The notes beneath the pieces were generated by a model. The model was not told where the DNA came from. It saw only the letters and a program-made list of their open reading frames with translations, and did not search any database. From assembly GCA_965199715.1 (NCBI GenBank), contig OZ241322.1, forward strand, positions 1,888,001-1,952,000: a stretch of 64,000 nucleotides of DNA, read 5' to 3'. A program made the position numbers and the translations under genes. Shown here piece by piece: positions 7,178-39,700 of the stretch (position 1 is the stretch's first letter; every line of letters begins with the position of its first letter). Source of the stretch: Vicinamibacteria bacterium. GTDB taxonomy: Bacteria; Acidobacteriota; Vicinamibacteria; Marinacidobacterales; Marinacidobacteraceae.

Positions 7178-8488
<1,311 letters not shown>

Positions 8489-9643
8489 GACAGGCGGTCC
8501 ATCCGCCTCGAGGGGAGAATCCAGCCGTCCGCGCGGCGCCGCTCCTCGTCGCCGCCGTACACCGCCGCCACCTCCACCGGGAAGGCGTCGAGGTGGCCGG
8601 CTACCCGGCGGGCGCCCGACAGCCTCCCGGACGAGAGCGCGCCGGCCGACTTGCATTCGACGAACGTCAGTCGATCCGGTCGCTGGATCACGAGGTCCAC
8701 TTCGGCGCCGTTGCAGTCCCGATAGAACGAGAGCAGGCGGTCCTCCTCGACGAGCTTCCGCGCCTCGGAAAGGACCCACGTCTCGAACGGCGCGCCCCGC
8801 AGCGGGTGGCTGCGAAGGTGGGCCGGCTCACGGATCCCGAGCAGGCGAGTCCGGCGTCGTGGAACGCCAGTTTCGGGGCCTTCCCCGGCCGCTTGCGGAC
8901 GTTCGCGTGGAAGGGGCGAAGCCGGAACACGACGTAACCGGCCTCCAGCACCGACAGCCACGTCCTCGCCGTGGGTTGGGAGATCCCGTAGGCCCTGGCG
9001 AGCGACGCCAGATTCAGCAACTGCGCGGTCCGTCCGGCGCACGACTCGAGGAAGCGCCGGAACGTCTCGAGATCGCCGACGTTGAGCGCCTGGCGCACGT
9101 CCCGCTCAATGTACGTGCGCACGTAGCTGCCGAGCCAGCGCGACGGTTGCCGGCCTCTGTCGAAGACGCGGGGGAAACCGCCGGCGAGCAACGCCTCGTC
9201 GAGAGTGGCCGGCGGCTTCTCGAAACGCTGGATCTCGGCCCAGTTCAGCGGCAGGAGTTCCAGAAGCTCGGTCCGGCCGGCGAGCGACCGGTCGCCCGGA
9301 TCCCGGACGGAACCAGTCAGGATCCAGCGTCCGCGCGCCGGGTTCTCGTCCACGATCCCCTGGAGGTGCGAGAGCAGGTCCGGCGCGCGCTCGATCTCGT
9401 CGAGGACTGCGTCGTGCGGGAACTGCGCGAGGAATCGGCGCGGGTCCTCGACCGCGAGGGAGCGCGTGTCGAGCTCCTCGAGCGAGGCGAAGGGCCGGTC
9501 GCCGAAGACATGGCGGCAGAGGGTCGTCTTGCCGCTCTGCCGGGGACCGGTGAGCGTGACGACCGGCGCCAGGCTGGCCGCGACCCTGACTGCCGGCGCG
9601 AGATCCCGGCCAATCCAAGATCGAATCTTGAATCAGCTTGAGT

Positions 9644-10771
9644 TCAGGCGGCGACCAGCGTCTCCGCGGCGACCTCCCGCAGGGTCTCGCTGATGAGGCC
9701 GAGGCTCGTCTCGAGCACGTGCGGCTCGGCGCCGTAGCCGATCCGGAGGAAGCCGTCCATCTCGAAATGGCTGGCGGGGACGACCAGCAGGTCCTTCTCC
9801 AGGCGCAGCCGCTCGCCGAACTCCTCCGCCGGGATCGGATGTTCGTAGCGCACCGCGGCGATCGCGCCGGCCTCGGGGCGCGTCCAGCGGAGCCCGACCG
9901 GATGGTTCGCGTGGGACGCGATCCAGCTCTCGACCAGCGGAAGCTGGCGGCGCATGATCCCGCGGGTGCGCTCGAGGATCTCGGGCCGGCGGTCCAGCGC
10001 GATCCGCGCGAGCCGGTCCGAGAGCGCGCTGATGGCCAGCGTGTTGTAGTCGCGGTGGCCCCAGAGCTCGTTCGCCCGATCCTCGGTCGTCACGATCCAG
10101 CCGACCCGGAGCCCGGGCAGCCCGAACGCCTTGGAGAGGCCGGCGTTCAGGAAGATGCGATCCACCCGGCCCCAGAACGTCGGGCACTCGACGCCGTTCA
10201 GTTCCGCGCCGCGATAGACCTCGTCGGCGAGCAGCCAGGCGTCCGAGCGGTTCGCGACGTCCGCGATCCGGTCCATCTCCCGCTCCGTGAGCACGCGGCC
10301 GGTCGGGTTGTTGGGGTTGCAGACGCAGATCAGCTTGGTGCGCTCGGTGACCGCGGCCTCGAGCGCGTCGAGGTCGGGCCGCCAGCCCTCCGCTTCGACC
10401 AGCGGGAAGGGGATCACCCGGGCGCCGAGCGACCGGCAGGCGCCGATGATCTGCATGTAGTTCGGGACCATCGCCACGACCTCGTCGCCCGGGTTGAGGG
10501 AGACGAGCGCGGTCAGGAAGTTGGCCTCGGCGGTTCCGTTGGTGATGAGCACCTGGTCCCGGTTCGCGCCCGGGTGGAGCGCGGCGACCCGCTCCCGCAG
10601 CGGAATCGTGCCGTTGCTCTGCGGATAGCCGAGCAGCGTGTCCCCGAGATCGCGGTCGCCGACGAGCTCGGCGAGCGTCATCGGGTGGACTCCGCTTTCC
10701 GAAATGTTCCAGCGCACGGTGTTTTCCCACCGGCACAGGCTGCGCTCCATGACGAACGGCACGAACTTCAT
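9644..10771 (-). CDS. Class I/II PLP-dependent aminotransferase
   Basis: Start ATG at 10771 (MKFVPFVMERSLCRWEN...). CNPNNPTG, ADEVYRG, GLSKAFGLPGLRVGW. Confidence 0.92.
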   Translation of the reverse strand: MKFVPFVMERSLCRWENTVRWNISESGVHPMTLAELVGDRDLGDTLLGYPQSNGTIPLRERVAALHPGANRDQVLITNGTAEANFLTALVSLNPGDEVVAMVPNYMQIIGACRSLGARVIPFPLVEAEGWRPDLDALEAAVTERTKLICVCNPNNPTGRVLTEREMDRIADVANRSDAWLLADEVYRGAELNGVECPTFWGRVDRIFLNAGLSKAFGLPGLRVGWIVTTEDRANELWGHRDYNTLAISALSDRLARIALDRRPEILERTRGIMRRQLPLVESWIASHANHPVGLRWTRPEAGAIAAVRYEHPIPAEEFGERLRLEKDLLVVPASHFEMDGFLRIGYGAEPHVLETSLGLISETLREVAAETLVAA

Positions 10772-25804: not shown

Positions 25805-27058
25805 GTGTCCCCCTGGCGGCGAATCGGCTGGCGCAACCTCGGACGGAACCCGCGCCGGACGATCCTCACCTCGCTCGGCCTCGCGGTCGGCTACTTCGCG
25901 GTCGTGTTCATCATCGGCTGGGCGGGCGGGATCACCGCCGAGCTGGTCGAGAACGCCACCTCGCTGGTCGGGGGCGCGATCGAGGTCCACCACCGCGACT
26001 ATCTGCCCGACCGCGGCCTCTACGACACGCTCGGCGGGCGCGACGGAGTGGACGTCGCGGAGCTTCTGGGCGCGATCGAGGCCGCGCCCGGGGTCGTGGC
26101 GGCGGCTCCCCGCGTGTACGGGGGCGGCCTCGTCAGTTCCGGCGACGCCACCGCCGCGGGGGCGCTGTACGGCGTGGACCCCGAACGGGAGACGCGGCTG
26201 ACCCGCTTCCTCGATCCGCTCGTGGCCGGCCGGCTCCCGTCCGCCGGAGCGGGCGAGGTCGCGGTCGGCGAGGAGATGGCGCGGCAGCTCTCGGTCGAGG
26301 TCGGAGACGAGCTCGTCGTCGTCGCCTCGGCGGCCGACGGCTCCATGGGGAACGACCTCTTCACCGTGTCCGGCGTGTTCCGCACTGGGCTGATCGAGTT
26401 CGACGCCGCCACCGCGGTCCTGCCGCTCGGGGACCTCCAGACGCTCATGGCGCTGCCTCCCGGACGCATCCACCAGGTGCTCGTCGGCGTCGCCGATCCG
26501 ACGGACGCGCCGGCGGCCGCCGATGGCGTCGCCCGGGCGATCGGGGCGGAGTCCCGGGAGATCGCGGCGGCCCCGTGGACCGAGCTCAACCCGGTCCTGC
26601 GCGACTACGTGGCGCTCGCGGGCTCCATGTACTGGCTCATCATCGTGATCGTCTTCGCGATGGCGAGTTTCGGCGTCGCGAACACGATGCTCATGGCCAG
26701 CTTCGAGCGCCGGCGCGAGTTCGCGGTCATGCTGGCGCTCGGCGCCGGCCCGCGGGCGGTCGTCGCCACGGTGCTCGGCGAGGCCTTCGCCATCGGGTGC
26801 GCGAGCCTCGCGATCGGCGGCGCGATCAGCTTCCCGCTGATCGCGTGGTTCTACGCCGCGCCCCCGAGCCTCGCCGGAGTCTGGGGGAACGTGACGCTCC
26901 AGGGGGCGCTGCTCACCCCCAGCCTGCGCGTGGGCCTCGATCCGGTCGGGTGGGCGTGGGCCACCGTCGGCCTCCTTCTCACCGCGGTGCTCGCCGGGCT
27001 CTATCCGGCGATCAAGGCGTCGCGCACCCCGCCCGCGGACACGCTCGCCGGCCACTGA
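25805..27058 (+). CDS. ABC permease (LolE/MacB-FtsX type) 1
   Basis: GWRNLGRNPRRTILT, ANTMLMASFERRREFAVMLALG, LYPAIKASR. Confidence 0.92.
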   Translation: MSPWRRIGWRNLGRNPRRTILTSLGLAVGYFAVVFIIGWAGGITAELVENATSLVGGAIEVHHRDYLPDRGLYDTLGGRDGVDVAELLGAIEAAPGVVAAAPRVYGGGLVSSGDATAAGALYGVDPERETRLTRFLDPLVAGRLPSAGAGEVAVGEEMARQLSVEVGDELVVVASAADGSMGNDLFTVSGVFRTGLIEFDAATAVLPLGDLQTLMALPPGRIHQVLVGVADPTDAPAAADGVARAIGAESREIAAAPWTELNPVLRDYVALAGSMYWLIIVIVFAMASFGVANTMLMASFERRREFAVMLALGAGPRAVVATVLGEAFAIGCASLAIGGAISFPLIAWFYAAPPSLAGVWGNVTLQGALLTPSLRVGLDPVGWAWATVGLLLTAVLAGLYPAIKASRTPPADTLAGH

Positions 27059-28335
27059 TGCCGCTCCGCCTCCTCCTCGTCCTCGCCCTGCGCAACCTGC
27101 GCCGCCAGTTGCGGCGCTCGATCCTCACCGCGGCCGCGATGGCGTTCGGCGGCGTGCTCATCGTCTTCACGTTCACCCTTTCCGACGGCAGCCACGAGCA
27201 GTGGATCGACTCGGCGGTGCGCCTCGGCAGCGGCCACGTCACGGTGGAGCGCCCCGAGTACCGGCTCAGCCGGCGCATCGACGACCGCCTCGACGACGAG
27301 GTTCGCGCCGCCGCCGAGGCGGCGCTCCGGTCGCCGGGGATCGCCCCGGACGTCGTCTCGGTGTCCGCGAGGCTCAACGTGAACGGCCTCGCCGGGTCCG
27401 CCGCCGGGGCGCGCCCGGCGCGGATCGTTGCGGTCGATCCCGTCGCCGAACGGGATTTCGGGCCGGTGGACGACGAGATCGTCGAGGGCCGCTATCTCGA
27501 ACCCGGGGATCGGCTCGCCGCCGTGGTCGGAGTCGAGCTGCGCGACGCGCTCGACCTGCGGCTCGGTTCGCGGCTCGTGGTGCAAGCGCAGGACGCCGAG
27601 CGCGAGATCGCCGGGCAGTTGCTCCGGGTGGTCGGCGTGTTCGAGACCGGGTCGCCCGGCGTGGACCGGGGCGTGATCCACATGCCGCTCGAAGTCGGCG
27701 GCGAGTGGCTCGCGTCGGGAAGCGGAGTGACCAACATCGCGGTGGCGCTCGAAACGAGCCGCGCGACGGGTCGCGTGGCCGAGCGGCTCGCCGAGGCGCT
27801 CGCGGGGCCGCTTGGGGAGAACCGGGCGAGCGTGCTCGGCTGGCGGGAGACGGATCCGGCGCTCGCGTCGGCGCTCGCGATCGACGCGCTCGGCAACTAC
27901 CTGATGCAGGGGTTCCTGTTTCTCATCATCGCGTTCGCGATCGTGAACACGGTGCTCATGTCGGTCATGCACCGCAACCGCGAGTTCGGCGTGCTGCGGG
28001 CGCTCGGGGTCACCCCCGGCCAGAGCGGGGCCATCGTTCTGATCGAGGGCCTGACGCTGTCCGCGCTGAGCGGTCTCGCCGGAGTCGGGGCGGGACTCCT
28101 GCTCACCCAGGGGCTCTTCGGGGACGGGCTGGACTTTTCGGTCCTGCTCGGGGACATGGACCAGATGACCTTCTCCGGCGCGGTGGTCGATCCGATCATC
28201 ATGCCGCTGTTCCGACCCGCCCGGCTCGTCGGGATCACGCTCTTCATCCTCGTCGTGGGCTTCGCCGCCTCGGTGTACCCGGCGCTGCGGGCGGCGCGGA
28301 TCGACATGACCGAGGCGGTCAAATTCGACCGATAG
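27058..28335 (+). CDS. ABC permease (LolE/MacB-FtsX type) 2
   Basis: ATG at 27058 (TGATG overlap); ALRNLRRQLRRSILT, VNTVLMSVMHRNREFGVLRALG, YPALRAAR. Confidence 0.92.
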   Translation: MPLRLLLVLALRNLRRQLRRSILTAAAMAFGGVLIVFTFTLSDGSHEQWIDSAVRLGSGHVTVERPEYRLSRRIDDRLDDEVRAAAEAALRSPGIAPDVVSVSARLNVNGLAGSAAGARPARIVAVDPVAERDFGPVDDEIVEGRYLEPGDRLAAVVGVELRDALDLRLGSRLVVQAQDAEREIAGQLLRVVGVFETGSPGVDRGVIHMPLEVGGEWLASGSGVTNIAVALETSRATGRVAERLAEALAGPLGENRASVLGWRETDPALASALAIDALGNYLMQGFLFLIIAFAIVNTVLMSVMHRNREFGVLRALGVTPGQSGAIVLIEGLTLSALSGLAGVGAGLLLTQGLFGDGLDFSVLLGDMDQMTFSGAVVDPIIMPLFRPARLVGITLFILVVGFAASVYPALRAARIDMTEAVKFDR

Positions 28336-28345
28336 GGGACCTGCG

Positions 28346-29041
28346 ATGGCGAACGAACCGGCGGTCCGGACCGAGAATCTGTGGAAGGTCTTCACCCAGG
28401 AGGCCGAGGAGGTCCACGCGGTCCGGGGCGTGGACCTCGCAGTCGCGTCGGGCGAGTTCACGGCGCTCGCCGGCCCCTCGGGATCCGGCAAGACCACGTT
28501 GCTGAACCTGATCGGCGGCCTCACCCGCCCGACGAGGGGCGACGTCTTCGTGGCGGGGAAGGCGCTCGGCGGCCTGAGCAACCGGGAGCTCGCGCTGCTG
28601 CGCCTGAGCCAGGTCGGATTCGTCTTCCAGGCGTACAACCTGCTTCCGGTGCTGAGCGCGTTCGAGAACGCCGAGTTCCCGATGCTGCTCCAGGGCGTAC
28701 CGCCCGACGAGCGGCGCAAGCGCGTGGACGAGCTCTTCCGCCGCACCGGAATGGAGGGCCTCGAGGACCGGCGCCCGGGCAAGCTCTCGGGCGGGCAGCA
28801 GCAGCGCGTGGCCGTGGTGCGGGCGGTCGCGAGCCGCCCGGCGCTGGTGCTCGCCGACGAGCCCACCGCGAACCTCGATTCGGCGACGAGCGACGCGCTG
28901 CTCGACGTGATGGACGAACTGAACCGCGACCTCGGCGTCACCTTCGTCTTCGCGACGCACGACGCGCGGGTGATGGAGCGGTCCCGGCGGCTGATCCGGA
29001 TGGTGGACGGCGCGGTCGCGAGCGACGGGCGGCGTTCGTGA
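28346..29041 (+). CDS. ABC transporter ATP-binding protein (LolD-like)
   Basis: GPSGSGKTT, GFVFQAYNL, LSGGQQQRVA, LADEPTANLD. Confidence 0.94.
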   Translation: MANEPAVRTENLWKVFTQEAEEVHAVRGVDLAVASGEFTALAGPSGSGKTTLLNLIGGLTRPTRGDVFVAGKALGGLSNRELALLRLSQVGFVFQAYNLLPVLSAFENAEFPMLLQGVPPDERRKRVDELFRRTGMEGLEDRRPGKLSGGQQQRVAVVRAVASRPALVLADEPTANLDSATSDALLDVMDELNRDLGVTFVFATHDARVMERSRRLIRMVDGAVASDGRRS

Positions 29042-30189
29042 GGCGCGCCGCCCTTCTGGCTGGCCTGCTCGGCGCGGCCGTCCCCGCAGCGGCGCAGCCG
29101 GTGACCGGGTACTTCCAGACGGTCCCGATCGCCGCCGACGGCGGCCTGCTCGCCGACTTCACCCGCCTCCGGCTCGCGAGCGACGCGGAACTCGGCGCCT
29201 TCCGGTTCGAGGTCGCGTGGGAGCACGTCCTGACGCTGCGGCGCAACGACGTGCTGCCGGGGTTCACGCTGGGAACCGCGCCCGGCGGCGGGGAGTGGCT
29301 CGACCTCGAATGGACGCTCGCCGAGGGCGAGCACGGGGAATGGCGGCACCGGTTCGACCGGCTCAGCGTCTCGTGGACTCCCGCCGAGACCCTCGAGATC
29401 CGCGCCGGACGGCAGGCGGTCTCGTGGGGCACAACGCTGTTCCTGACCCCGGCCGATCCGTTCACCCCGTTCAACCCGGTGGACCCGTTCCGGCAGTTCC
29501 GGGCCGGCGTCGATGCAGCGCGGGTGCGCTTCTACCCCGGCGCGCTCAGCGAACTGGATCTGGTCGTGCGCCCGACCCCCTCGCCGGACGGAGACGAAAT
29601 CACCGCGGTGGCGCGCGGCCTGACCACCGTGCGGAACTGGGAGATTTCCGGATGGGCCGGCGCGCTCTACGGCGATCCGGCGGCGGCGGGCGCGTTCGCG
29701 GGCGCGCTCGGCGCGTGGGCGGTGCGCGGCGAGACCACGCTCCGAAGCCTCGAGGATCGCACGGCCTTCCGCGGCGTTCTCGGCGTGGACCGCGTGCTCA
29801 AGCTCGCCGGGCGCGACTTCTCGATCGCCGCCGAATACCAGCGCGACGGACTCGGCGCGGCCGACCCCGCGGAATATCTGGACGTGCTGCGGTCGGACTC
29901 CTTCCGGCGCGGCGAACACCAGGTGCTCGGACGCGACGAGGCCGTGCTCCAGGCGTCGTACGCCCTCCACCCGCTGTGGAGCATGAGCGGCCTGTGGTTG
30001 GTGAACCTCAACGACGGCAGCGGCGTCCTCGGCCCCGCGCTCGGCTGGTCCGTAGGCGAGGAGTTCAACCTTGCGGCGGGCGCGTTCCTCGGCTTTGGGG
30101 CCGACGACCAGACTCTCGCGCGCCCCATCCCGTCCGAGTACGGCCTGGCCAAACTGACCGGGTACGTGTCGTTCAGTTGGTATTTCTGA
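29038..30189 (+). CDS. Putative outer-membrane beta-barrel protein
   Basis: GTG 29038 overlaps the previous stop; signal peptide, DRL...GRQAVSWG...GVDAAR, alternating strand pattern, C-terminal YVSFSWYF (BAM-type terminal Phe). Confidence 0.75.
   Translation: MRRAALLAGLLGAAVPAAAQPVTGYFQTVPIAADGGLLADFTRLRLASDAELGAFRFEVAWEHVLTLRRNDVLPGFTLGTAPGGGEWLDLEWTLAEGEHGEWRHRFDRLSVSWTPAETLEIRAGRQAVSWGTTLFLTPADPFTPFNPVDPFRQFRAGVDAARVRFYPGALSELDLVVRPTPSPDGDEITAVARGLTTVRNWEISGWAGALYGDPAAAGAFAGALGAWAVRGETTLRSLEDRTAFRGVLGVDRVLKLAGRDFSIAAEYQRDGLGAADPAEYLDVLRSDSFRRGEHQVLGRDEAVLQASYALHPLWSMSGLWLVNLNDGSGVLGPALGWSVGEEFNLAAGAFLGFGADDQTLARPIPSEYGLAKLTGYVSFSWYF
30154..30176 (+). repeat. Left copy of 23-bp perfect direct repeat bounding the island
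   Basis: CTGACCGGGTACGTGTCGTTCAG is identical at 39026-39048. Confidence 0.9.
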
Positions 30190-30394
30190 CGCGGGGCCGC
30201 AAACCGTTCCCGCTTGGGTGCGCCCGACGGAACCATGCCACAGGCAACGAAGCCGCCGACCCGCCCCTCCTGTCCTTCAGGACCACGTAGACATCTCATC
30301 CGCACAACGCCTCGTCCGTCCGGAATCGGTGCCCGCCGCTACGCTCGGAACGCTCCGCAGTACCGCGTGGCGCGGCATACAATCCACTGTCACC

Positions 30395-31429
30395 ATGCCG
30401 AGCACGTATCAGACGATTCCGACCTCTCGAATTGACTTCGACCGGGAAAACCCACGGATCAAGGTTGCCTTGGAAAAGTACGGCGACAAGCTCAATGAGC
30501 CCCGCATCCGATTCGCGCTGCAGACCGCCACGGAGGGGTCGGCCAGTGCGTCCTCCTATCGCGCCCTAAAGGACTCCATCAGAGCGGCGCAAGGCATTTC
30601 CGTGCCAATCGTCCTGAAGCCTCAGGATGACCGTTTCGTGTGTATTGACGGCAACACCCGCTTGGCAATCTACCAAGAGCTCCACGACGAGAGTCCCCAC
30701 GTAGGATGGGACACCATAGACTCCCTGGTTTTGGAGCATCCCACTCCCGTAGATATTGAAACGATTCGCGTTACCGCACATCTTGTGGGCGCACGTGAAT
30801 GGCCCGCATACGAAAAGGCGCGCTATCTTCACCATCTGCGCAATGTCGAATTCATGAGTTACGACGAGTTGATCGCACGATGCGGTGGGAACAGAAAAAC
30901 AATCGATCAGCAAATTGATGCCTTCCATGACATGAATGAGTACTATCGAGACTTGGGGAGTGACGATGCGTTCCGAGTCGATCGCTTCAGCGGATTCGTC
31001 GAGTTGCAAAAGCGAGGCATCAAGGAAGCCATCTTTGACGCTGGTTTCGAACTTACGGACTTCGGTGGCTGGATTCGCACGGGCAAGATCTACAAGCTGG
31101 CCGATGTCCGTATGCTGCCCCGCGTCCTCGCTGATCCAGAAGCGCAGGAGGCCTTGGTCGAGGGCGGGATTCGTGCAATAGAGCGCGCCAATGACATCGC
31201 AACGAGAAACCGCCGTCCCAGCGCGCGCTCTTCGGCTGCTGAGCTCGCAGTGGCCGATGCCGGTCTCACGCTGTTGGCGGAGGCACTTCAACAGAAAATC
31301 AACGCTCTACCACGAGAGGAGTTCCTAGCGCTTCGCGATCGGCGCGGCGATACAGAGTCGCAAGCTGTAGATGCCTTGGAGATTCTCGCGACGTCGCTTC
31401 GGGACCTTCTTCAAGATGTCACCAAGTAG
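30395..31429 (+). CDS. ParB/Sulfiredoxin-like N-terminal domain protein (copy 1)
   Basis: Start ATG 30395 (TACAAT at 30378); IDFDRENPRI, LKDSIRAAQGISVPIVL, VCIDGNTRLAI (ParB GxxR motif), HLVGAREWPAYEKA. Confidence 0.8.
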   Translation: MPSTYQTIPTSRIDFDRENPRIKVALEKYGDKLNEPRIRFALQTATEGSASASSYRALKDSIRAAQGISVPIVLKPQDDRFVCIDGNTRLAIYQELHDESPHVGWDTIDSLVLEHPTPVDIETIRVTAHLVGAREWPAYEKARYLHHLRNVEFMSYDELIARCGGNRKTIDQQIDAFHDMNEYYRDLGSDDAFRVDRFSGFVELQKRGIKEAIFDAGFELTDFGGWIRTGKIYKLADVRMLPRVLADPEAQEALVEGGIRAIERANDIATRNRRPSARSSAAELAVADAGLTLLAEALQQKINALPREEFLALRDRRGDTESQAVDALEILATSLRDLLQDVTK

Positions 31430-31865
31430 CGAGCATCAGCGGCTCACCGCTGTGACCGCCCGCGCCCTCAGGGTGCTCTACCCAAACTGGGACTTCAGGA
31501 TTGACCTTCCAGGGGAGCGGGTGCCGCGACTGCTCGGCGGTTATCGCCCCGATATTCTGGCGTGGAGCCCGGAGGATGGCGTCCGGCGAATCGTCGCCGA
31601 AGCGAAGACCGATGGCGACGTGGACAATCCCCACACACGCGCTCAGCTCCGCAGCTTTGTGGATTATCTCATTGGAGACTCTGTGCGTCAGGGCACGCTC
31701 ATTCTTGCCATCAACCCAGTCGCGGCTCCGACGGCGGTTCGCGTTCTACGCCTTCTGTGCGGTGGACACACGTCGCGGAATTTGCGCGTCTGGTACTTCG
31801 ACGGATTGGATTTCTGGGAGCGCGCCGCACACGGCGGGGGCGACTTCAGTTGGCATTTGCGCTGA
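31416..31865 (+). CDS. Small PD-(D/E)xK-family putative nuclease
   Basis: Start ATG 31416 overlaps the upstream gene; SEHQRL helix, YRPDILA...IVAEAKT...HTRAQL. Confidence 0.7.
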   Translation: MSPSSEHQRLTAVTARALRVLYPNWDFRIDLPGERVPRLLGGYRPDILAWSPEDGVRRIVAEAKTDGDVDNPHTRAQLRSFVDYLIGDSVRQGTLILAINPVAAPTAVRVLRLLCGGHTSRNLRVWYFDGLDFWERAAHGGGDFSWHLR

Positions 31866-33307
31866 GGCGAAAGCCGACGCTTTCGCCGATACACGCGGCG
31901 TACCCGTACCAACTGGACGCCGTGCGGGCGCTGGAGGATCGGCCCTACGCCGCTGTCTTCCATGAGCAGGGTCTCGGCAAGACGAAAATTGCGATTGACC
32001 TGGCGCTCCAGTGGCTCAAGCGCGACCTAGTGGACACGGTGTTCATTGTCACGAAGAAATCGTTGGTTGAGAACTGGCGACGAGAAGTGGAGGCTCACTG
32101 CGCGATCACACCGCACGTTCTGTCGAGTAACCGTGCGCGGAACAGCAAGGCACTCAACTCCCCAGTTCTTCTGTATATTATGCACTACGAGACTGTCGCG
32201 TCGAACAAAGGGACTTTGGGACTGTTCTTGCGGACGTGTCGAGTTGGATGCATTCTCGATGAAAGTCAGAAAATCAAGAACCCACAGACAGCGCTATCGC
32301 GAACCTTCCACGACATAGCGAGCGGGTTTGAACGTCGGGTCATCATGACGGGTACACCGGCCGCAAATCGTCCGTACGACATCTGGTCACAAATTCGTTT
32401 TTTGGACGGCGGACACGCTCTCGGCGAGTCGTTCGACAGTTTTCGTGCGGAGATGGATCTGCCAAATGTTGGCACTAGTGTGGACGAATACGGTCAACGC
32501 CTGAGCGCGATCCATCGACGACTAGCGCCATTTGCTGTGCGGGAGACAAAGGAGACGGCGGGCATTAGTTTGCCGGAAAAGACCATTGTCGGCCATCGAG
32601 TGGAAATGGAGATGCGACAAGCGGAACGGTATTCCGCGTACCGAGACGAACTTGCGTTGGAGTATTTGAGGGAGGACGGCAATGTCGAGGTGGACGACGC
32701 GGAGAACGTCCTCAAGCGGTTGCTGCGGCTGGTCCAATGCGCATCCAATCCGGCGTTGATCGATGAGGAGTATGACAGAGAGCCGGCGAAATTGCCGTTG
32801 CTGCGGGACCTGTGCCAGGAGTTGATTCCGGACTCGAAATTGATTATCTGGACAGGATTCGTGGCCAATGTGGAGTGGCTGGCAACGAAACTAGCCAGCT
32901 ACTCGCCATTGACTGTTCACGGAGGCCTCACGATGTCGCGACGAAATGACGCGATCTGCGAGTTTGTTGAGTCAAGACACTTGATTTTGATTGCGACGCC
33001 GGGAGCGGCCAAGGAGGGGCTCACTCTGACGGCGGCGAATCATGCGATTTTCTTTGATCGCAGTTTTAGTTTGGACGACTACCTTCAAGCACAGGATCGC
33101 ATTCACCGGATTTCTCAGACGCGAGAGACATTTGTGCACAACCTGATAGCGCAGAACACGATTGACGAATGGATCGATTCACTGCTCTCGGCGAAGTACC
33201 GTGCGGCGCAGATGGCGCAAGGTGACATCAGTGCGACACGGTTTCGCAACTCGTTCCAGTCGGATGTGGGCGAGATGCTTCGGGCGGTTCTCCGCTCCGG
33301 GCGGTAA
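31850..33307 (+). CDS. SNF2-family (SF2) helicase/ATPase
   Basis: Probable TTG start at 31850; YPYQ, FHEQGLGKT (Walker A), ILDESQKIKN (Walker B), MTGTP, KEGLTLTAAN, QAQDRIHRISQ. Confidence 0.92.
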   Translation: MAFALRRKPTLSPIHAAYPYQLDAVRALEDRPYAAVFHEQGLGKTKIAIDLALQWLKRDLVDTVFIVTKKSLVENWRREVEAHCAITPHVLSSNRARNSKALNSPVLLYIMHYETVASNKGTLGLFLRTCRVGCILDESQKIKNPQTALSRTFHDIASGFERRVIMTGTPAANRPYDIWSQIRFLDGGHALGESFDSFRAEMDLPNVGTSVDEYGQRLSAIHRRLAPFAVRETKETAGISLPEKTIVGHRVEMEMRQAERYSAYRDELALEYLREDGNVEVDDAENVLKRLLRLVQCASNPALIDEEYDREPAKLPLLRDLCQELIPDSKLIIWTGFVANVEWLATKLASYSPLTVHGGLTMSRRNDAICEFVESRHLILIATPGAAKEGLTLTAANHAIFFDRSFSLDDYLQAQDRIHRISQTRETFVHNLIAQNTIDEWIDSLLSAKYRAAQMAQGDISATRFRNSFQSDVGEMLRAVLRSGR

Positions 33308-33426
33308 TTGCGGGCGTTGCCCGGGGCGGGTTCGGACCACGCAGCTGGGTATCCGCCGCGGCGCGATATTGCGTTACGGGCGTAGGGGGCGGGGTGGTGG
33401 AGCGCATTGGGGGGTGCGGGGTCTGG

Positions 33427-33870
33427 ATGCTGGAGTCGCCCGATCGACTGCTGGATCAGTTTCTGGCGCAGCGGGGCTTCGCTGTGGCGTTCCACGAAGG
33501 GGACGCTGGTCAAGGCCTCGAAGGAGGCGGTCGCTTACCGGATCCTCGGGCCGGGATGGATGTCTGCCTGTATCGCGAGGAGGAGCGGGCGGCGGGGAAC
33601 CTTCGAAACGGGCGCAACCGGAAGCCGGCCTTACCGACGACGGGGAGATGGACCAAGGGGGTCCGCGGGGCCGCATGGGTGGACTCGGGTCGAGCCTCGT
33701 AGAGAAGCGCCTCCGGCGGCTGCTGGGGTTCGACGTGGAGACGCTCTCGAGGTCTCGCCGAACTTGTCTTGACGGTGACCGACGAGGCGCGATAGCAGCG
33801 GTCGCACGCGCTGGAGGCGACGTACGCGTTGATGTTCTTCGACGCGCTGCGGGTGAAGGTGCAGGATAAG
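33427..33870 (+). pseudogene. IS256-family transposase remnant
   Basis: Fragments across frames: PDRLLDQFL, GNLRNGRNRK, LTDDGEM, LVEKRLRRLLGFD, LEATYALMFFDALRVKVQD (IS256 'FFDALRVK' motif). Confidence 0.75.
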
Positions 33871-33916
33871 TGTCTGTGCGGCCCAACCCCATCACGGCCG
33901 TCCAATGCGCTCCCAG

Positions 33917-34560
33917 TGGAGTTGCCCCGGTTTCGTGGACGGCTGACCTCTAGCGAGGAGGGCGTCCACGATGATGACCAAGAAGAAGCGGAAGCGTCCG
34001 CAGCGGTGCGCTTCGGAACGCGGCTGGTTGAGCTGGCGCGCTCGGGCCGGAGTCCGGAGGACCCGGCGCGGGAGCTCGAGCCTACCGCCGCGATGATCCG
34101 GACCTGGCGGCGGGCCGCGGACTTGGCCGAGGAAGCGGACGCCGACGGCTGGAGTCGGCCGGAGCGCGAGGAGATGCGCCGGCCGCGTCAGGAGAACTTC
34201 CGCCTCAAGCGCGAGCGGGAGATCCCGGGAAAGGCGGCGGCCTGGTTCGCCCGGGAGACCATCTCCGAGGGTGGAGGCTCATGAAGGCGCGCCGGGCCGA
34301 GTGTCCGATCGCCATGACGGCCCGCGTCCTGAAGGTCTCGAGGAGCAGGCGCTACGCGCGGCTGGGGCGCGAGCCGTCCTCTCGCGAGGGCGGACACGGC
34401 GCTGATGGAGGCGATCCGGGCGATCCACGAGGAGAGCCGGGAGGCGTACGGCGCGCCGCGGGCTCGGGCGGAGCCTCGCTCGCGGGAAGAGCGGGCGAGC
34501 CGGAAGCGGATCGCGCGGTTGATGCGGAGGCTGGGCGTTCAGGGAGCGTCGCGGCGGCTC
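33917..34560 (+). mobile_element. IS3-family element remnant (left end, orfA, 5' part of orfB)
   Basis: TGGAGTTGCCCCGGTTTCGTGGAC left IR; orfA LVELARSGRSPEDPARELEP...RLKREREIPGKAAAWFARET; orfB RVLKVSRS..Y, IRAIHEESREAYGAPR, RKRIARLMR. DDE domain missing. Confidence 0.85.
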
Positions 34561-34679
34561 GGGGAATCGCCTACTGATTTCTTGGTACAGTGCGCTCGAA
34601 TTCCGCCATGGGACCCAAAACGGGCCCCCGATCAGGTCGTTACGGAGAGAGCGAAGAAAGTGAACGGACAGACCGCCCA

Positions 34680-35702
34680 ATGAGTTCGCATGGCCCCACA
34701 ATCACTTTACTGGGAACGACCATCGAAGGAACGGAGGAGAGCCTCCCCATAGAAGATCTCCGCTTCTTCCCAGAGAACCCGCGTGTACTGGCTGCCGTGC
34801 GAGAAATTACGGGTTTCGAGGAGCTGACGTTAGAGGAAAAACAGGAGCAAATCTACAAGCGCCTGCTGAAGGAACCCAGTGTCAAGAATCTCAAGCCCGA
34901 AATCGAGCGTGATGGCGGGCTCCAAGTGCCGATCATCGTTCGCGTAGAGACCAACCAGGTAATCGAGGGAAACTCGCGCCTTGCGGTGTACCGCGCGCTG
35001 GCCGAAGACAATAGAAGCGACGAGCGATGGACACACATACGGTGCCACGTCTTCTCCGGGCTTACGGACGAACAACAAACACGGATTTTGAGTGCAACCC
35101 ATTTACAGGGCATCACCGAATGGCCGCCGTATGCGAAAGCACTCTTCTGCTTCACAGCCGTGGAAGAGCGTCAGGTACCGATCGAAGCGTTCTCCAGCCT
35201 CACTGGAATGGGGAAGGCCGAGATACAGAAGCAGGTCAAAATAGTCAAGATGATGCAAGAAAACGCCGACAACAACTACGCGAATTTCAGCTACTACGAC
35301 GTGTTGGTGCGTTCTCGCAAACTCGCTCCTGCGATCCAAGACAACGAGACGCTTCGCAAGAAACTTCTCAGCGATATCAAGACGAGTGCCTTTACAGCAC
35401 GAGCAATGCGCGATCAGCTTCCAACTATCATGGATAAGCCGCGCGTATTTCGAAAATATATGCAGGGCGGAGTGACACTGGAGGAGGCCTACGATCGTTC
35501 GAAAATTAGCGGAGCTGAGCAGCTTCTGAAGCGGGTCCTCACGCGGTTGAAGGAAATCGAGGCGCCGGACATTACGAGTTTGGAAGCAACGCGCGCGCGA
35601 GCTCTTCAAATGCACGCCCGAAAGATCGAGAGAGAGATTCGACGCGTCTTGAGTGGCGTCGAACGGCACTTGAAGTCCGACGGAGAAAAAGGGATTCCAT
35701 GA
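34680..35702 (+). CDS. ParB/Sulfiredoxin-like N-terminal domain protein (copy 2)
   Basis: Probable ATG 34680; LRFFPENPRV, IERDGGLQVPIIV, VIEGNSRLAV, HLQGITEWPPYAKA; paralogous to 30395..31429. Confidence 0.8.
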   Translation: MSSHGPTITLLGTTIEGTEESLPIEDLRFFPENPRVLAAVREITGFEELTLEEKQEQIYKRLLKEPSVKNLKPEIERDGGLQVPIIVRVETNQVIEGNSRLAVYRALAEDNRSDERWTHIRCHVFSGLTDEQQTRILSATHLQGITEWPPYAKALFCFTAVEERQVPIEAFSSLTGMGKAEIQKQVKIVKMMQENADNNYANFSYYDVLVRSRKLAPAIQDNETLRKKLLSDIKTSAFTARAMRDQLPTIMDKPRVFRKYMQGGVTLEEAYDRSKISGAEQLLKRVLTRLKEIEAPDITSLEATRARALQMHARKIEREIRRVLSGVERHLKSDGEKGIP

Positions 35703-37324
35703 CCGCGTTCGGATCCGGGAAACGCATCCTTCTGGTGGAGCCGGGATACCGAAACAAGTATCCCCCGCTAGGCCTCATGAAGCTGGCGGCGTACCACGGG
35801 CCGGAGGGCCGGAGAGATATGGTTCGCTTCGTGAAGGGTGAAGACCCCGAGGTTCTTGAGCACGCTTGGGATCGAGTCTACGTGACCACGCTGTTCAGCT
35901 TTGAGTGGAAGCGGACTGCGGAGGCCATCGATTTCGCAGTGCGGGCCGCACACGGACAGGCCGAGCGGGTCTTCGTGGGGGGTATCGCCGCCACATTGAT
36001 GTTCGAGGATTTTGTGCGGGAACCGCGGTGGGCGGGAGTTCGCTTCATCACCGGACTCTTGGATCAGGCGCCCGCTCAGTCGCTCCAACTCTCGACCGCA
36101 GACGGTGACTTCGGCGCGGATGACATGGATGGATTGCCGATTGAGGAACGGGTGCCCGACTACACGATCCTCGATCACGTGCGCTATGGGTATCCGGTTC
36201 ACGATGCGTACTTCGGGTACGCCTCACGCGGATGTGTGAGGAAATGCGCCTTCTGCGGCGTCCCCAAATTGGAGGGTGGACAGCGGGAAATGCCACCGCT
36301 TACGGGGATGGTGCGCGACGTGTACGATCGATTTGGGCCCAAGAAGGATCTCATTCTTATGGACAACAACGTTGCGGCAAGCACGCGGTATCGGGAAGTT
36401 ATTGCAGAGATCCGTGACGTGGGTTTCCATCGGGGTGCACGGTTGGAGCGGGGAGGGAACAAGCCGATTAAGCGCCGCGTGGACTTCAATCAAGGTGTGG
36501 ACGCACGTATTCTTGTGAAGTCGCCGATGTACCTTGAGGAAATGGCCACGATATGTATTGATCCACTGCGGATTGCGTTTGATCACGTCGGGATGCGCCG
36601 AGTCTACGAGCGTGCGGTTCGCATGGCGGCGGAAAATGGCCTCACGTCATTGTCCAACTACCTGCTCTACAACTTCAAGGACTCACCGCGGGATCTCTAT
36701 CGACGCATGAAGATCAACATCGCTCTGAATGAGGAGCTCGGAGTACGGATTTGGTCGTTTCCGATGAGATACCTGCCTGTGACCATGAAGGACCGCTCCC
36801 ACGTCGGCGAACGATGGAACCGTTACTTCCTGCGGTCATTTCAGCTCATGCTGCAGGCGACGCATGGAGTTGTGTCGGGGAATGGGGAGTTCTTTCATCG
36901 GGCGTTCGGAGACGGGGAGGAGCAATTCGAGGAGCTGCTAGCGCTTCCCCACGCCTTCATTTTCGCGCGGAGCTTTTACGATCAAGGGGCGGGACGCGGC
37001 GTTTTCGACGACTACCTGGCGCTTCGGCGGCGAGCGTCGGCGAGTCAGCGTGCCGATCTTGTCGCTGTGCTCAGCGAGGTGTTGAATCTCCGCCCACGGC
37101 GGGACGCATTTCGGCGTCTGTTGGCGGATCGGTCCGTGGACCGTCTTACGCGCGAGCTGGCGCGCTTTCACGCCATCGACACGCGAGCGCCCAAGGTTAC
37201 CGAAGTGTCGCGCTTGGTTTCGGAGGTCGCGCCGGAGGAGGTACGAATCGAGGACGCGGGCTTGTATGATCCAATCGGCGGTCAGCCGGAGTCCGTAGAG
37301 ACACCGCTGCGCGCGAGCGGATGA
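35699..37324 (+). CDS. Cobalamin-binding-domain radical SAM protein
   Basis: N-terminal ILLVEP..YPPLGLMKLA, VYVTTLF, VFVGGIAATL (B12-binding Rossmann pattern); SRGCVRKCAFC (CxxxCxxC), MDNN, DFNQGVDAR; ATGA overlap with the upstream gene. Confidence 0.88.
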   Translation: MTAFGSGKRILLVEPGYRNKYPPLGLMKLAAYHGPEGRRDMVRFVKGEDPEVLEHAWDRVYVTTLFSFEWKRTAEAIDFAVRAAHGQAERVFVGGIAATLMFEDFVREPRWAGVRFITGLLDQAPAQSLQLSTADGDFGADDMDGLPIEERVPDYTILDHVRYGYPVHDAYFGYASRGCVRKCAFCGVPKLEGGQREMPPLTGMVRDVYDRFGPKKDLILMDNNVAASTRYREVIAEIRDVGFHRGARLERGGNKPIKRRVDFNQGVDARILVKSPMYLEEMATICIDPLRIAFDHVGMRRVYERAVRMAAENGLTSLSNYLLYNFKDSPRDLYRRMKINIALNEELGVRIWSFPMRYLPVTMKDRSHVGERWNRYFLRSFQLMLQATHGVVSGNGEFFHRAFGDGEEQFEELLALPHAFIFARSFYDQGAGRGVFDDYLALRRRASASQRADLVAVLSEVLNLRPRRDAFRRLLADRSVDRLTRELARFHAIDTRAPKVTEVSRLVSEVAPEEVRIEDAGLYDPIGGQPESVETPLRASG

Positions 37325-38832
37325 GACGGGAACGCCCGGCGCTCGTCGGGGGCGATATCCTGCGGCTGGTCACATCGGGGATTTATGACGACCCCTTGAT
37401 GTTGTATCGGGAATACCTCCAGAACGCGGCGGATTCGGTGGAGATTGAGGCTGGTGGGAAGGGAGCGGCGCACGTCGTTCTCGATCGACTTGCCGGACGA
37501 GTAACCGTACGTGACGATGGTGCCGGGTTGTCGCCGGCCGAGGCGGTCAACCGGCTGACGGATGTGGGGAACAGCCCGAAGGTTCCTGGGCGTCATCGCG
37601 GGTTGCGCGGAGTTGGGCGTCTGTGTGCGCTCGCGTTCGCGGAGAGCGTGCACTTCACAACGCGCGCCAGTGGGAGGGAACCGGTGACGCGCGTCTCTTG
37701 GAGCGGGCGCGCTTTCCGCGAAGGAGCCGGGGTCGACATGGACGCGAGGGAGGCGATTGAGTCCTGTACTGAAGTCCAGACGCTCTTGGGAGGGGACTGG
37801 CCCGAACGGTTCTTTGAGGTGAGAGTGGAACGCGTGACGCGGATGGCGGCCGGACTGGTGCTCAACGAAGATGCAGTCCGACGGTACATTGGCGAGGTGT
37901 GCCCCGTTCCCTTGGATTCATCTTTTCCATTTGCCACTGAGGTGAACGCGTTCCTCAGTCAACACATCAACTACTTCGGGCTTGACGTGCGGCTCAATGA
38001 ACGGGAGAGGCCGATCAAGCGACCATACGGGAAGGGTGTGAGAGTGACGGACGAGCTATTGGTTCCGTTCGAGCGACTTGAGACTCGTCTGATTCCGCGA
38101 ATCGATTCGGACCGGCCGGCGGCCGTCGTGTGGCTTGCGCACACGCCGTATATGGGCTCGATCTCGAAGCGACTGGCGATTCGGGGCCTTCGTGCACGAG
38201 TCGGGAACGTGCAAGTGGGTGGGGATCACGTGTTCGAGAAATTGTTTCATGAGTCTCGTTTCAATGGGTGGTGCGTAGGGGAGGTCCATATTGCGGATAG
38301 TCGGATCGCCCCCAACGGGAGACGCGACTACTTCGAGGTGAACCCGCATCTGCGGAATCTCGAGAACCATCTTGGGACGGTCGCGCGGGAGATTGGCGGG
38401 AGGTGTCGGCGGGCCTCGTCGCAACGCAACAGAATTCGTAACGTTCGGACGGTCATCGGTCAGGTCAAGCGAGCTCGGGAGTTGGCGATATCGGGGTACC
38501 TGTGTAGGGAGGACGCAGCGCGGCTGTTGCAGCGCCAGCGGGCGCGGATGGAGGAGATCAGGAAACACGTGCGGCTGCTTCCGGCCGCCCTGGGCGTGGA
38601 GGGGGGCGAAATGGAGTCTCTTGAGAGCGAGTTGGAGGAGGTCGACTTGGAAGCGCTCGGGCGCCGCGCCAACGACAGACTGACTGACTTGCCGCCTACG
38701 TCGGCACGCGCCCTGCGGTCGGCCTTTGGGGCGCTCGCTGCGACCATGTCGGTCGACGCAGTCTTCGAAGTCATTGCGCTCGTCGAAGGCCGGCTGTCTC
38801 GTGAGCGGGCTTTTCGGGCGAGCCGAGCGTGA
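37321..38832 (+). CDS. GHKL ATPase (MORC/Hsp90-like, HATPase + S5 domain)
   Basis: YREYLQNAADS (ExxxNxxD), RDDGAGL, RGLRGVGRL, FTTR; second domain RVGNVQVG...CVGEVHI...PNGRRDYFE; helical C-terminus; ATGA overlap. Confidence 0.88.
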   Translation: MRRERPALVGGDILRLVTSGIYDDPLMLYREYLQNAADSVEIEAGGKGAAHVVLDRLAGRVTVRDDGAGLSPAEAVNRLTDVGNSPKVPGRHRGLRGVGRLCALAFAESVHFTTRASGREPVTRVSWSGRAFREGAGVDMDAREAIESCTEVQTLLGGDWPERFFEVRVERVTRMAAGLVLNEDAVRRYIGEVCPVPLDSSFPFATEVNAFLSQHINYFGLDVRLNERERPIKRPYGKGVRVTDELLVPFERLETRLIPRIDSDRPAAVVWLAHTPYMGSISKRLAIRGLRARVGNVQVGGDHVFEKLFHESRFNGWCVGEVHIADSRIAPNGRRDYFEVNPHLRNLENHLGTVAREIGGRCRRASSQRNRIRNVRTVIGQVKRARELAISGYLCREDAARLLQRQRARMEEIRKHVRLLPAALGVEGGEMESLESELEEVDLEALGRRANDRLTDLPPTSARALRSAFGALAATMSVDAVFEVIALVEGRLSRERAFRASRA

Positions 38833-38849
38833 CTTCCGCTGCGGCCGCT

Positions 38850-39060
38850 GCCCCACGCCTTCGCCCAAAGAAGACGGCGTCACCGCGCTCCTGCGGGGCC
38901 TGACCACCGTTCGGAGCTGGGGTGCGTATGCGCTCGACTGCTTTCCGGCCGGGGCGCTCCGAGGCTTCGGTGCTTACGACTCGGCGCCGTTGCGCCTGAC
39001 TCCGTCGGAATACGGGTCGGCCCGGCTGACCGGGTACGTGTCGTTCAGGTGGTACTCCGG
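38850..39060 (+). pseudogene. Diverged, internally deleted duplicate of the 3' half of the beta-barrel gene 29038..30189
   Basis: PTPSPKEDGVTALLRGLTTVRSW matches PTPSPDGDEITAVARGLTTVRNW (29571-29640); GFGAYD..TPSEYGSARLTGYVSFRWY matches GFGADD..IPSEYGLAKLTGYVSFSWYF. Confidence 0.88.
39026..39048 (+). repeat. Right copy of 23-bp perfect direct repeat
   Basis: Identical to 30154-30176. Confidence 0.9.
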
Positions 39061-39227
39061 ATTGGGCGAGGCGTTAGGCTGCTGCGTCCGAATTGGGTGG
39101 TTCACGCCCTCGGCCCCGCTATTGGTCGTGAGCGAACGCCTCGTCGACGAGTGCGCCGCCGACGTGCTGCTCGCGACGAGTCGATTCTGGGCTTCCGCAA
39201 CCCCCAAACCGTCTGGGAGCGCACCTG

Positions 39228-39700
39228 ATGCTGCGTGAAGTGCAACTTGAGAATTTCAAGTGCTTCGAGCACTTGAAGCTCGACTGCGCGCCGCTGAGCC
39301 TCCTCTGCGGACTGAATGGCACGGGAAAGAGCAGCTTGATTCAGGCGCTGCTCGTGCTGAGACAGTCGTTCGCGAGCCGCGCCCTCGAAGACGGGCGCCC
39401 TTCGCTTCGCGGGGAGCTCGCCGGTCTCGGTGATGCCTCGGATGTTCTCTTTCAGCATGCGAAGATGCCAGAAGCGGCCTTCTCTCTTGGTGCTGGGTCC
39501 GAGCGCGAGGCCTGGAGCAAGCGGTTCCGACTCTCGAGCATCGGTCGGTTCGCGGCCGTCCGCGCGGACGAGGAAGTCCCGCACGCCTAGCGAGACGCAA
39601 CCCCGTTCGGCGGGCGCATGCTGCACGTGGGGGCGGAACGGGCGGGGCCCCGCAAGGCCTTTCCTCTCGCCGAAAAGGAGGCCCAGCCGGAGCACTTCGG
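39228..39700 (+). pseudogene. ABC/AAA_21-type ATPase (DUF3696-associated type), N-terminal fragment
   Basis: LENFKCF..L...LSLLCGLNGTGKSSLIQALLVLRQS; in-frame TAG at 39588, then LHVGAERAGPR motif; signature and Walker B half absent. Confidence 0.75.

Follow-up and report, generated by a model that had tools for sequence, protein, structure and literature searches.

A radical-SAM enzyme and an Hsp90-like ATPase at the core of a mobile gene system, possibly of the modification-restriction type, in a Vicinamibacteria bacterium

A conserved radical-SAM and ATPase core with a swappable block

What kind of system combines a radical S-adenosylmethionine (SAM) enzyme, a GHKL ATPase, two ParB-like proteins, a small putative nuclease and an SNF2-family helicase, with no DNA methyltransferase, DndC, DpdA or Pgl protein among them? 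The question is raised by six genes at positions 30395-38832 of a 64,000-nucleotide stretch of contig OZ241322.1 (Vicinamibacteria bacterium, assembly GCA_965199715.1), which is referred to here as the window. The original prediction, made from the DNA letters, regarded them as an undescribed defence or DNA-modification system. Comparison of homologous loci shows that the invariant core is a translationally coupled pair, radical SAM plus an Hsp90/MORC-type GHKL protein, while the ParB1-nuclease-SNF2-ParB2 block is a swappable add-on. The whole is mobile and modular. It could be a conflict system that works by modification and restriction, with a build resembling that of Dpd, Dnd and Ssp but with radical-SAM chemistry; this function is proposed by analogy and held tentatively, at a probability of about 0.45. 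The genes and the element that separates them (ORF, open reading frame; AF2, AlphaFold 2) are:

30395-31429, plus strand: ParB1, ParB/Srx-like, 344 residues, opens the nuclease-helicase block (ORF)
31416-31865, plus strand: small putative PD-(D/E)xK nuclease, 149 residues (ORF and motif)
31850-33307, plus strand: predicted minimal SNF2-family helicase, 485 residues, TTG start at 31850 (ORF and Pfam)
33310-34575, no strand: insertion-sequence debris, outside the system, splitting the operon (ORF fragments, G+C)
34680-35702, plus strand: ParB2, paralogue of ParB1, 340 residues from the ATG at 34680; the ORF opens with a GTG at 34590
35699-37324, plus strand: predicted radical-SAM enzyme, 541 residues, core gene (ORF, cysteine motif, AF2 model)
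37321-38832, plus strand: predicted GHKL (GHL) ATPase, 503 residues, core gene (ORF, motifs, AF2 model)

The expectation of six intact, co-oriented genes of foreign composition is borne out. Their overlaps lie where they had been placed (31416/31429, 31850/31865, and ATGA at 35699 and 37321), with four nucleotides shared between the ParB2 stop and the radical-SAM start and again between the radical-SAM and GHKL genes. G+C content is 0.55-0.67 across 30-39 kb versus 0.70-0.78 in the surrounding DNA. Since the six proteins align nearly end to end with their homologues (median query cover 0.77-0.99 in the 41 loci with tblastn matches to all six), all six genes are intact; their catalytic motifs are invariant in the orthologue alignments of all six families. 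A scan of 29900-39300 for promoters and terminators gave a site count not above that of shuffled sequences.

The gene neighbourhoods were compared in the best 80 of 134 places that encode a relative of the radical-SAM protein on one-genome-per-species contigs, all ORFs being clustered. In 78 of these 80 loci the GHKL gene immediately follows the radical-SAM gene. The other window genes are found in more than half of them (SNF2 in 48, ParB2 in 48, ParB1 in 47, PD-(D/E)xK in 46), and the remaining frequent partners are a small DpdB/DndB-like protein (36), a second GHKL protein with an HATPase_c_3 domain (33), PIN_8 (24) and a fusion of a large DndB with a Swt1-type HEPN domain (10). All six window genes co-occur in 46 of the 80 loci and keep the window order in 43, and a stricter tblastn search places all six in 41 loci. 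In 32 of the 80 the core stands without SNF2, that is, without the block, and usually with other nuclease modules instead (e.g., PIN_8 plus the second GHKL protein, or DndB-HEPN). The two ParB-headed triplets that had been put forward as the functional units are thus replaced by the radical-SAM and GHKL dyad as the invariant unit. Judged from the gene coupling only, the two core products may bind each other.

The reverse search agrees. Among the best 80 of at least 538 confirmed ParB1 places in metagenomes, found with a ParB1 profile, 49 contain the radical-SAM gene, and the remaining 31 all fall under the contig-length rule and were classed as uninformative (30 of them truncated contigs, the other being L120 with its solitary ParB1 homologue), which leaves no informative locus with ParB1 and without the radical-SAM gene. 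The ParB1-nuclease-SNF2(-ParB2) block is therefore found only beside the core, while the core also occurs without the block or with other modules; such an asymmetric dependence would be expected of a restriction part that cannot do without its modification part. In the 49 loci with both genes, the arrangement is colinear in 27, divergent in 16, convergent in 4 and tandem upstream in 2.

These counts contradict the notion of two unrelated three-gene systems lying side by side. Such a reading is suggested by the window itself, where each half is headed by its own ParB-like gene and 1.3 kb of insertion-sequence debris lies between the halves. In homologous loci, however, nothing separates the halves, whose stop and start codons overlap (the contiguous six-gene form is seen, e.g., in L002 and L061), all six genes recur together, and ParB1 is never seen without the radical-SAM gene on contigs long enough to tell; the notion is hardly tenable. 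The claim of one conserved system therefore stands, whereas the module boundaries drawn for it need correcting; as a whole, the interpretation given with the prediction is plausible but unproven, and supported in part.

The six genes, a single operon elsewhere, are not contiguous in the window. The gap extends from the SNF2 end at 33307 to the ParB2 start at 34680, and the G+C-rich debris within it (33310-34575) includes IS3-type orfA/orfB-like fragments at 33829-34284 and 34281-34577 with a weak HTH_Tnp_1 match (E 0.009). Homologous loci lack the debris, and in them the stop codon of SNF2 overlaps the start of ParB2; in the window the debris therefore represents a secondary insertion into a single operon. 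The stretch is present in sponge-metagenome and related sequencing runs from three studies (X9, with a share of 0.07, and X10 and X11, with 0.00, were left out). In DNA run X1 the contig depth of the debris reaches 364 versus about 100 for the island, which indicates that the element is multi-copy. The debris stems from at least one IS3-type element, and a second fragment is possibly present on the minus strand at 33374-33895.

The radical-SAM tree (70 rows, quick IQ-TREE) consists of two fully supported clades, which differ in the gene directly upstream of the dyad: ParB2 in the window clade and a DpdB/DndB-like protein in the sister clade. The window belongs to a clade of 29 rows, and no small DpdB-like gene occurs in the loci of this clade that were scanned. 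Genes of the sister clade form two blocks, [ParB1, PD-(D/E)xK, SNF2, ParB2] and [DpdB-like, radical SAM, GHKL], which are often divergent (the 16 of 49 loci above), and the gene preceding the radical-SAM gene matches PADLOC DpdB (E 1.4e-16 to 7.3e-18) and Pfam DndB. Within the 43 same-order loci, a DpdB-like gene between ParB2 and the radical-SAM gene is absent in 24 and present in 19.

Some loci depart from these layouts. A 556-612-residue protein without a Pfam domain and a second GHKL protein precede the radical-SAM gene in five genome loci (L001, L007, L010, L011, L031) and in four from IMG/VR (L102-L104, L107); in the distant IMG/VR form of this layout (30-41% identity) no downstream GHKL gene was detected. 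In three loci (L055, L056, L074) a protein of about 265 residues, a second GHKL protein and a HerA/DUF87-type ATPase lie downstream of the core on the opposite strand, followed in L056 by a DUF5131 protein; this set may be a further accessory module. In one metagenome locus (L120, 9001-10032) a ParB1 homologue (49% identity) stands by itself: neither the 9 kb upstream of it nor the 4.6 kb downstream contains a nuclease, a full SNF2 or a radical-SAM gene. L120 alone might break the rule of ParB1 standing beside the core.

The core enzymes and their possible substrates

The protein encoded at 35699-37324 is assigned to the radical-SAM superfamily by its cysteine motif and its modelled fold. C179-x3-C183-x2-C186 is invariant, with a mean column identity of 59% over 70 sequences from several phyla, and the AF2 model (predicted local distance difference test, pLDDT, 87.3) comprises an N-terminal cobalamin-binding-like Rossmann domain, a radical-SAM barrel and C-terminal helices. 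The same three-part architecture and CxxxCxxC motif are found in AprD4, MgmA, TsrM, OxsB, CysS, TokK and the MiaB/RimO/MtaB group, on which the model superposes at Z 19-21.5 over 320-380 residues (AprD4 21.5, MgmA 21.0, MtaB 20.3, MiaB 19.4, TsrM 19.3, OxsB 19.1, CysS 19.0). Identity to these enzymes is only 10-16%, however, and no specific NCBIfam or Pfam family applies; the PF04055 match stays under the cut-off (16.6 versus 29.5 bits), and the Atlas look-up returned generic 'radical SAM' clusters only. Unlike MiaB and RimO, the window enzyme lacks the conserved N-terminal cysteines for a second cluster.

The description as a B12 radical-SAM protein holds at the level of fold, residues 4-142 aligning to cobalamin-binding domains at Z 9.4-9.6; it does not extend to cofactor use, which sequence does not decide. 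An N-terminal cobalamin-binding Rossmann domain is accordingly predicted at fold level only. AprD4 has a cobalamin-type domain while the cofactor is absent. PF02310 matches three distant relatives of the enzyme, all under the cut-off (E 1.4e-4 to 9.5e-4). The host genome (93% complete) encodes three other PF02310 proteins over the cut-off, and a search of it found no CobS; from this, cobalamin is probably available in the host, which says nothing on its use by this enzyme.

The family is large: at least 7,995 of the 8,000 candidates scored are homologues at E <= 0.001, the best 120 of which are 69-74% identical, and the wider superfamily has 437 representatives at E <= 1e-30. Across the 41 loci, median identity to the window proteins is 64% for radical SAM, 55% for SNF2, 47% for ParB1, 43% for GHKL, 35% for the nuclease and 34% for ParB2. 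The strong conservation of the radical-SAM protein would fit a constrained enzyme rather than an arms-race sensor. Longer relatives of about 800 (P0135, P0145, P0146, P0167, P0173) or 680 residues (P0136, P0149, P0156, P0163) carry C-terminal extensions of 150-300 residues in which no Pfam domain was found. A distant relative of 360 residues is encoded by the temperate phage Marinitoga camini virus 1 (L092, 5998-7080; 29% identity over residues 8-378), adjoining genes for a HerA helicase and a NurA-like exonuclease on the opposite strand.

Viperin acts on CTP and OxsB on dATP, and the product of the window enzyme might likewise be a nucleotide analogue, either poisoning phage replication or signalling to nucleotide-binding partners and nucleases. 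The best structural matches include OxsB and AprD4, and a conserved producer with swappable effector modules, each including a nucleotide-binding protein, would fit the architecture counts as well as the dependence of the effector block on the core. A 2026 preprint, in the one sentence concerned, reads an Hsp90 and radical-SAM neighbourhood around a cyclase-like effector in a similar spirit. A radical-SAM enzyme is also central to the defence-type loci of viperins and of Ophion, the latter composed of radical-SAM, PHP and PRTase proteins (bioRxiv 10.1101/2025.09.30.679545). The window system, however, lacks the PHP and PRTase partners, no PADLOC viperin or signalling-system model matches it, none of the usual signal-sensor domains is present among the accessory proteins scanned, and the links to DpdB-like and DpdE-like proteins point to action at the DNA level. 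With differences of no more than about 2 Z units among them, the top structural matches single out no substrate. A nucleotide product, the main rival of the modification-restriction reading, is considered unlikely.

The second core protein is a predicted GHKL/GHL ATPase, judged by its Bergerat-fold motifs and a modelled transducer domain. The invariant residues are E31, N35, D38, D65, G67, G94, G97 and G99, and PF13589 is matched at a borderline 25.5 bits against a cut-off of 25 (E 1.5e-5). Its AF2 model (pLDDT 90.9) shows Hsp90-like N-terminal and middle domains and a helical C-terminal part, the fold matches covering residues 1-370 (GRP94 Z 24.5, TRAP1 22.3, SMCHD1 21.6, MORC3 21.1, MORC2 19.9, MutL 17.0, topoisomerase II about 17). 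Of the earlier label of a MORC-like GHKL ATPase, the GHKL part is borne out by motifs and fold; by fold Hsp90 is nearest, and SMCHD1 and MORC score 3 to 4 Z units lower. With Hsp90, SMCHD1 and MORC (including the antiphage protein Tiamat) the window protein shares the Bergerat motifs and superposable N-terminal and middle domains; it differs in its helical C-terminal part, which is not the Hsp90 C-domain, and in being always paired with a radical-SAM enzyme. The S5-domain motif specific to MORC proteins is given as GhXhhpXXRhl (PMC2292703).

The rank of Hsp90 as first match by fold is also compatible with a switch, in which a phage cue, sensed by the ATPase, would set the radical-SAM enzyme free to damage a macromolecule of host or phage (RNA, protein or DNA), with the nucleases as a back-up and without self-marking. 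Surveys treat Hsp90-like NTPases (nucleoside triphosphatases) as switches of conflict systems (bioRxiv 10.64898/2026.10.19.760177), and PIN_8 and Swt1-type HEPN partners do occur in related loci. Such an abortive-infection mechanism is distinctly unlikely: conservation of the radical-SAM protein far exceeds that of its partners, the presence of SNF2 and ParB proteins suggests a lasting action on DNA, and metatranscriptome contigs cover the genes without a known infection context.

Block proteins, known systems and the proposed mechanism

The two ParB-like genes had been described as paralogous, and full-length comparison agrees (BLASTP 25% identity, E 2e-13; hhalign probability 99.9, E 1.8e-34, 307 columns). 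Both window proteins remain below the Pfam ParB threshold, and window ParB1 has no PF02195 match at all, but 20 of 40 ParB1 orthologues match this ParB_N model at E <= 0.1 (best 6.6e-6). ParB1 has weak matches to the ParB family model TIGR03764 (E 5.4e-4) and, by profile search, to SbnI, Noc and ParB chains (E 0.03-0.98), and the nearest named Atlas cluster of ParB2 is ParB/RepB/Spo0J (score 0.98). Invariant residues are N19, R21 and G86-N87-T88-R89 in ParB1 and N33-P34-R35, G97-N98 and R100 in ParB2, the NPR and GN(T/S)R motifs being invariant in both paralogues. On the orthologue and weak profile matches and the motifs, ParB1 and ParB2 are placed as putative members of the ParB/Srx superfamily. 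For ParB2 and the DpdB-like protein, profile comparison by hhalign gave a probability of 0.2 and no similarity, and homology is not claimed on this evidence.

In the 149-residue protein, D30, P45-D46, E62, K64 and Q77 are invariant across 38 orthologues (P45-D46 ... E62-A-K64). No sequence match was obtained in Pfam, NCBIfam, PADLOC or the PDB, and its profile against PDB sequences gave chance-level rows. The SNF2 protein alone among the six clearly passes Pfam thresholds (PF00176, E 2.9e-25, 89.4 bits; PF00271, E 8.9e-14, 52.1 bits, both over the cut-off), so that both an SNF2 N-terminal ATPase lobe and a Helicase_C lobe are predicted. Its helicase core matches the PADLOC models ZorD (E 6.8e-41) and DpdE (E 6.2e-32), ZorD scoring higher, and the DpdE models align over the helicase core only (e.g., model positions 728-1147 of 1176).

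The failure to match the genes to any known system recurs in the database searches. PADLOC-DB v2.0.0, viperin models included, matched no system; the radical-SAM, ParB2 and PD-(D/E)xK proteins matched no family in it, and stray matches were confined to JetC for GHKL (E 0.0057), PDC-M38A for ParB1 (E 8.3e-5) and generic helicase cores for SNF2. None of the six proteins has a specific model in NCBIfam. The absence of a methyltransferase, DndC, DpdA or Pgl protein among the six, as predicted, is confirmed by Pfam and PADLOC. A full-text literature search (figures and bioRxiv supplements, above all Figure 6A of 10.64898/2026.10.19.760177, lay outside it) found no paper naming or describing the gene set, so the system appears undescribed as such, in agreement with the original prediction. 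The only printed coupling of an Hsp90-type protein with a radical-SAM enzyme that was found is the single sentence of the 2026 preprint, which describes such a neighbourhood around a cyclase-like effector as part of a predicted immune setting; the text around that sentence gives no families, accessions or partners, and the window contains no cyclase-like gene.

Dpd offers the closest parallel in layout. DpdA, DpdB and DpdC carry out 7-deazaguanine DNA modification and DpdD-K restriction, DpdA being a TGT-family DNA transglycosylase. The likeness consists of a modification module and a nuclease/helicase module, a mobile and sporadic occurrence, an SNF2 core that matches DpdE and, in the sister clade, a ParB-superfamily NTPase beside the modifying enzyme that matches DpdB (E about 1e-16 to 1e-18). 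In contrast to Dpd, the six genes include no DpdA/TGT-family, DpdC or preQ0 gene (Pfam, NCBIfam, PADLOC), a radical-SAM enzyme and an Hsp90-like ATPase stand in the transglycosylase's place, and window ParB2 does not match DpdB. In Dnd a conserved modification module is combined with alternative restriction modules, often decoupled (PMC10853773). A conserved module paired with alternative nuclease modules is likewise seen here, and DndB-type (DGQHR) proteins lie beside the modifying genes, in related loci only (Pfam DndB). Unlike Dnd and Ssp, however, the six proteins give no DndA, DndC, DndD, DndE or Ssp match and include no sulphur-transfer enzyme.

Given this modular build and the ParB/DndB-fold partners, the dyad would by analogy mark the cell's own DNA and the block attack unmarked DNA. 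The radical-SAM enzyme would install a covalent mark on the cell's DNA; the nucleotide-dependent ParB/DpdB-like protein, together with the dimerising GHKL ATPase, might load the enzyme onto the DNA or regulate it there. Unmarked DNA entering the cell would then be the target of the dependent block, ParB1 potentially serving as a sensing clamp, the SNF2 motor translocating and the small PD-(D/E)xK nuclease cutting. In this genome an insertion-sequence remnant parts the two halves, the six genes still being intact. Whether the mark would be chemically novel is a separate matter: that the radical-SAM enzyme writes a DNA modification new to cellular genomes (e.g., C-methylation or a carbon-centred adduct on base, sugar or backbone), with the ParB/DpdB-like and Hsp90-like proteins loading it and interchangeable nucleases reading the mark, is doubtful, although deserving of attention.

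Several observations weigh against a modification-restriction function. Among proteins of solved structure, the nearest relatives of the radical-SAM enzyme have small molecules, proteins or RNA as substrates, and nothing shows DNA as the substrate of the window enzyme; PF02310 does not reach the window protein, and cobalamin use is not readable from its sequence. The ATPase fold is closest to the chaperone Hsp90 (Z 24.5), the DNA-acting MORC, SMCHD1 and MutL proteins following at 17-21.6, and only its motif assigns the 149-residue protein to the PD-(D/E)xK nucleases. PIN and HEPN partners are present in related loci, and such domains are typical of RNA-targeting, abortive-infection systems rather than of restriction. 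Many of the nearest-flank neighbours are housekeeping genes. Depth arithmetic in DNA run X1 hints at deletion of the system in about a third of the population: the flanks are covered at about 150-159x, the island at about 97-104x, and a contig that joins 30787 to 39024 at 46.5x, so that flank depth roughly equals the sum of the other two. The joining contig omits 8236 nucleotides, which begin within ParB1 and end shortly after the GHKL gene, and the shorter side of its joint measures 27 letters.

If the modification-restriction reading were true, the genes would constitute a widespread system with a radical-SAM modifier, with possible new DNA chemistry and uses in epigenetic marking and as nucleic-acid tools; its breadth is indicated by at least 7,995 core homologues, 134 genome places and at least 538 metagenome ParB1 places. 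It would give an Hsp90-type ATPase its first role together with a radical-SAM enzyme and would illustrate the reuse of ParB-fold proteins in immunity. A new DNA mark would add a fourth chemistry of modification-based immunity to methylation, phosphorothioation and 7-deazaguanine. Even if the product were a nucleotide, the dyad would represent a large uncharacterised enzyme family, tractable in harmless cultured strains (e.g., the pNL1-bearing Novosphingobium aromaticivorans DSM 12444).

Mobility, island edges and expression

The operon is horizontally mobile, as shown by mixed phyla, sporadic presence in the host family and occurrence on plasmids and in viral contigs. Phylum labels on the radical-SAM tree require 14 changes versus a shuffled mean of 15.5 and are thus as mixed as shuffled labels. 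Among the 40 host relatives compared, a strong radical-SAM match occurs in none of three congeners and in one of 24 family members, two further matches being weak (E about 1e-5), one of them in the unpublished G033, from which no conclusion is drawn. The single family member (G006; L188, G006:C1:1904000-1922500, 8475-10073) holds a solitary homologue (64% identity) whose frame is broken by one internal TAG; within 8 kb it has no partner gene. It is a decayed remnant that says nothing on function.

Such mobility raises the question of whom the cassette serves, and it could benefit the carrier plasmid, integrative and conjugative element (ICE) or prophage rather than the cell, by marking against host restriction, rival exclusion or DNA repair. 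Seventeen plasmid records match, 12 of them at 56-64% identity and seven of the 17 conjugative, including pNL1 of Novosphingobium aromaticivorans, where the copy lies among plasmid accessory genes and the system genes bear only generic names. The pNL1 copy consists of PIN, GHKL2, DGQHR, radical SAM and GHKL genes, and a plasmid of Rhizobium leguminosarum is a further carrier. Some loci adjoin DUF2958, DUF932, RepA_C or DUF3363 genes. IMG/VR contributes 15 loci, and distant radical-SAM homologues (no more than 34% identity) are found in phage genomes. Most of the 80 genome loci are chromosomal, however, and lie between housekeeping genes; the full nuclease-helicase block accompanies the core even in viral contigs (7 of the 15 IMG/VR loci have the block or most of it beside the core), and many true defence systems also ride mobile elements. 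Service to the element rather than to the cell is considered very unlikely. The name 'Saro_3948' presumably denotes a gene of the pNL1 strain. Under that name, Table 1 of PMC3710099 lists a ParB-HEPN fusion.

A Pfam scan of 113 of the 140 non-redundant nearest-flank ORFs (the other 27 and the second-nearest ORFs lay outside it) found 8 transposases or integrases, 4 plasmid or ICE genes and 9 ORFs with domains common in defence genes, all of them raw counts with no enrichment control.

At the window locus itself, the surroundings of the six genes include two related segments:

29570-30189, plus strand: 3' part of a conserved upstream gene; 30190 marks the left edge of the variable region
38850-39061, plus strand: second copy, partial and diverged (71-76%), of this 3' part, directly past the GHKL gene (repeat families D1, D2)

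The left flank (26000-30190) is shared with two congeners, G002 and G003, at 75-76% identity, the match extending to query position 4190 of 4201, and the right flank is non-syntenic with the congeners until about 42.5 kb. A repeat-bounded island had been proposed; two copies do flank the genes, but the second is merely a diverged, partial copy of the upstream gene. The defence debris reported nearby was not recovered, as the window ORFs at 39.1-44.4 kb gave no Pfam match and no defence-type domain. The description of the locus was thus largely right for the genes, their overlaps, paralogy and intactness, and was not confirmed for contiguity, the repeat boundary and the neighbouring debris.

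In two metatranscriptome runs of the same study, contigs of 99-100% likeness span 30952-32839 and 34643-38788; DNA carry-over is possible in these libraries. The contigs leave 32840-34509 uncovered, and at a contig depth of 2-9 no conclusion is drawn from this. One contig of each run begins precisely at 34643, 37 nucleotides before the ParB2 ATG, which weakly suggests that a transcript, possibly a new one, may start past the insertion-sequence debris.

Ankyrin-repeat genes are typical of sponge symbionts. Farther along the window, at 51839-52798 and 53009-53971, an ankyrin-repeat gene with a low third-position G+C of 0.67 adjoins an IS5-type DDE transposase and represents another foreign insertion.

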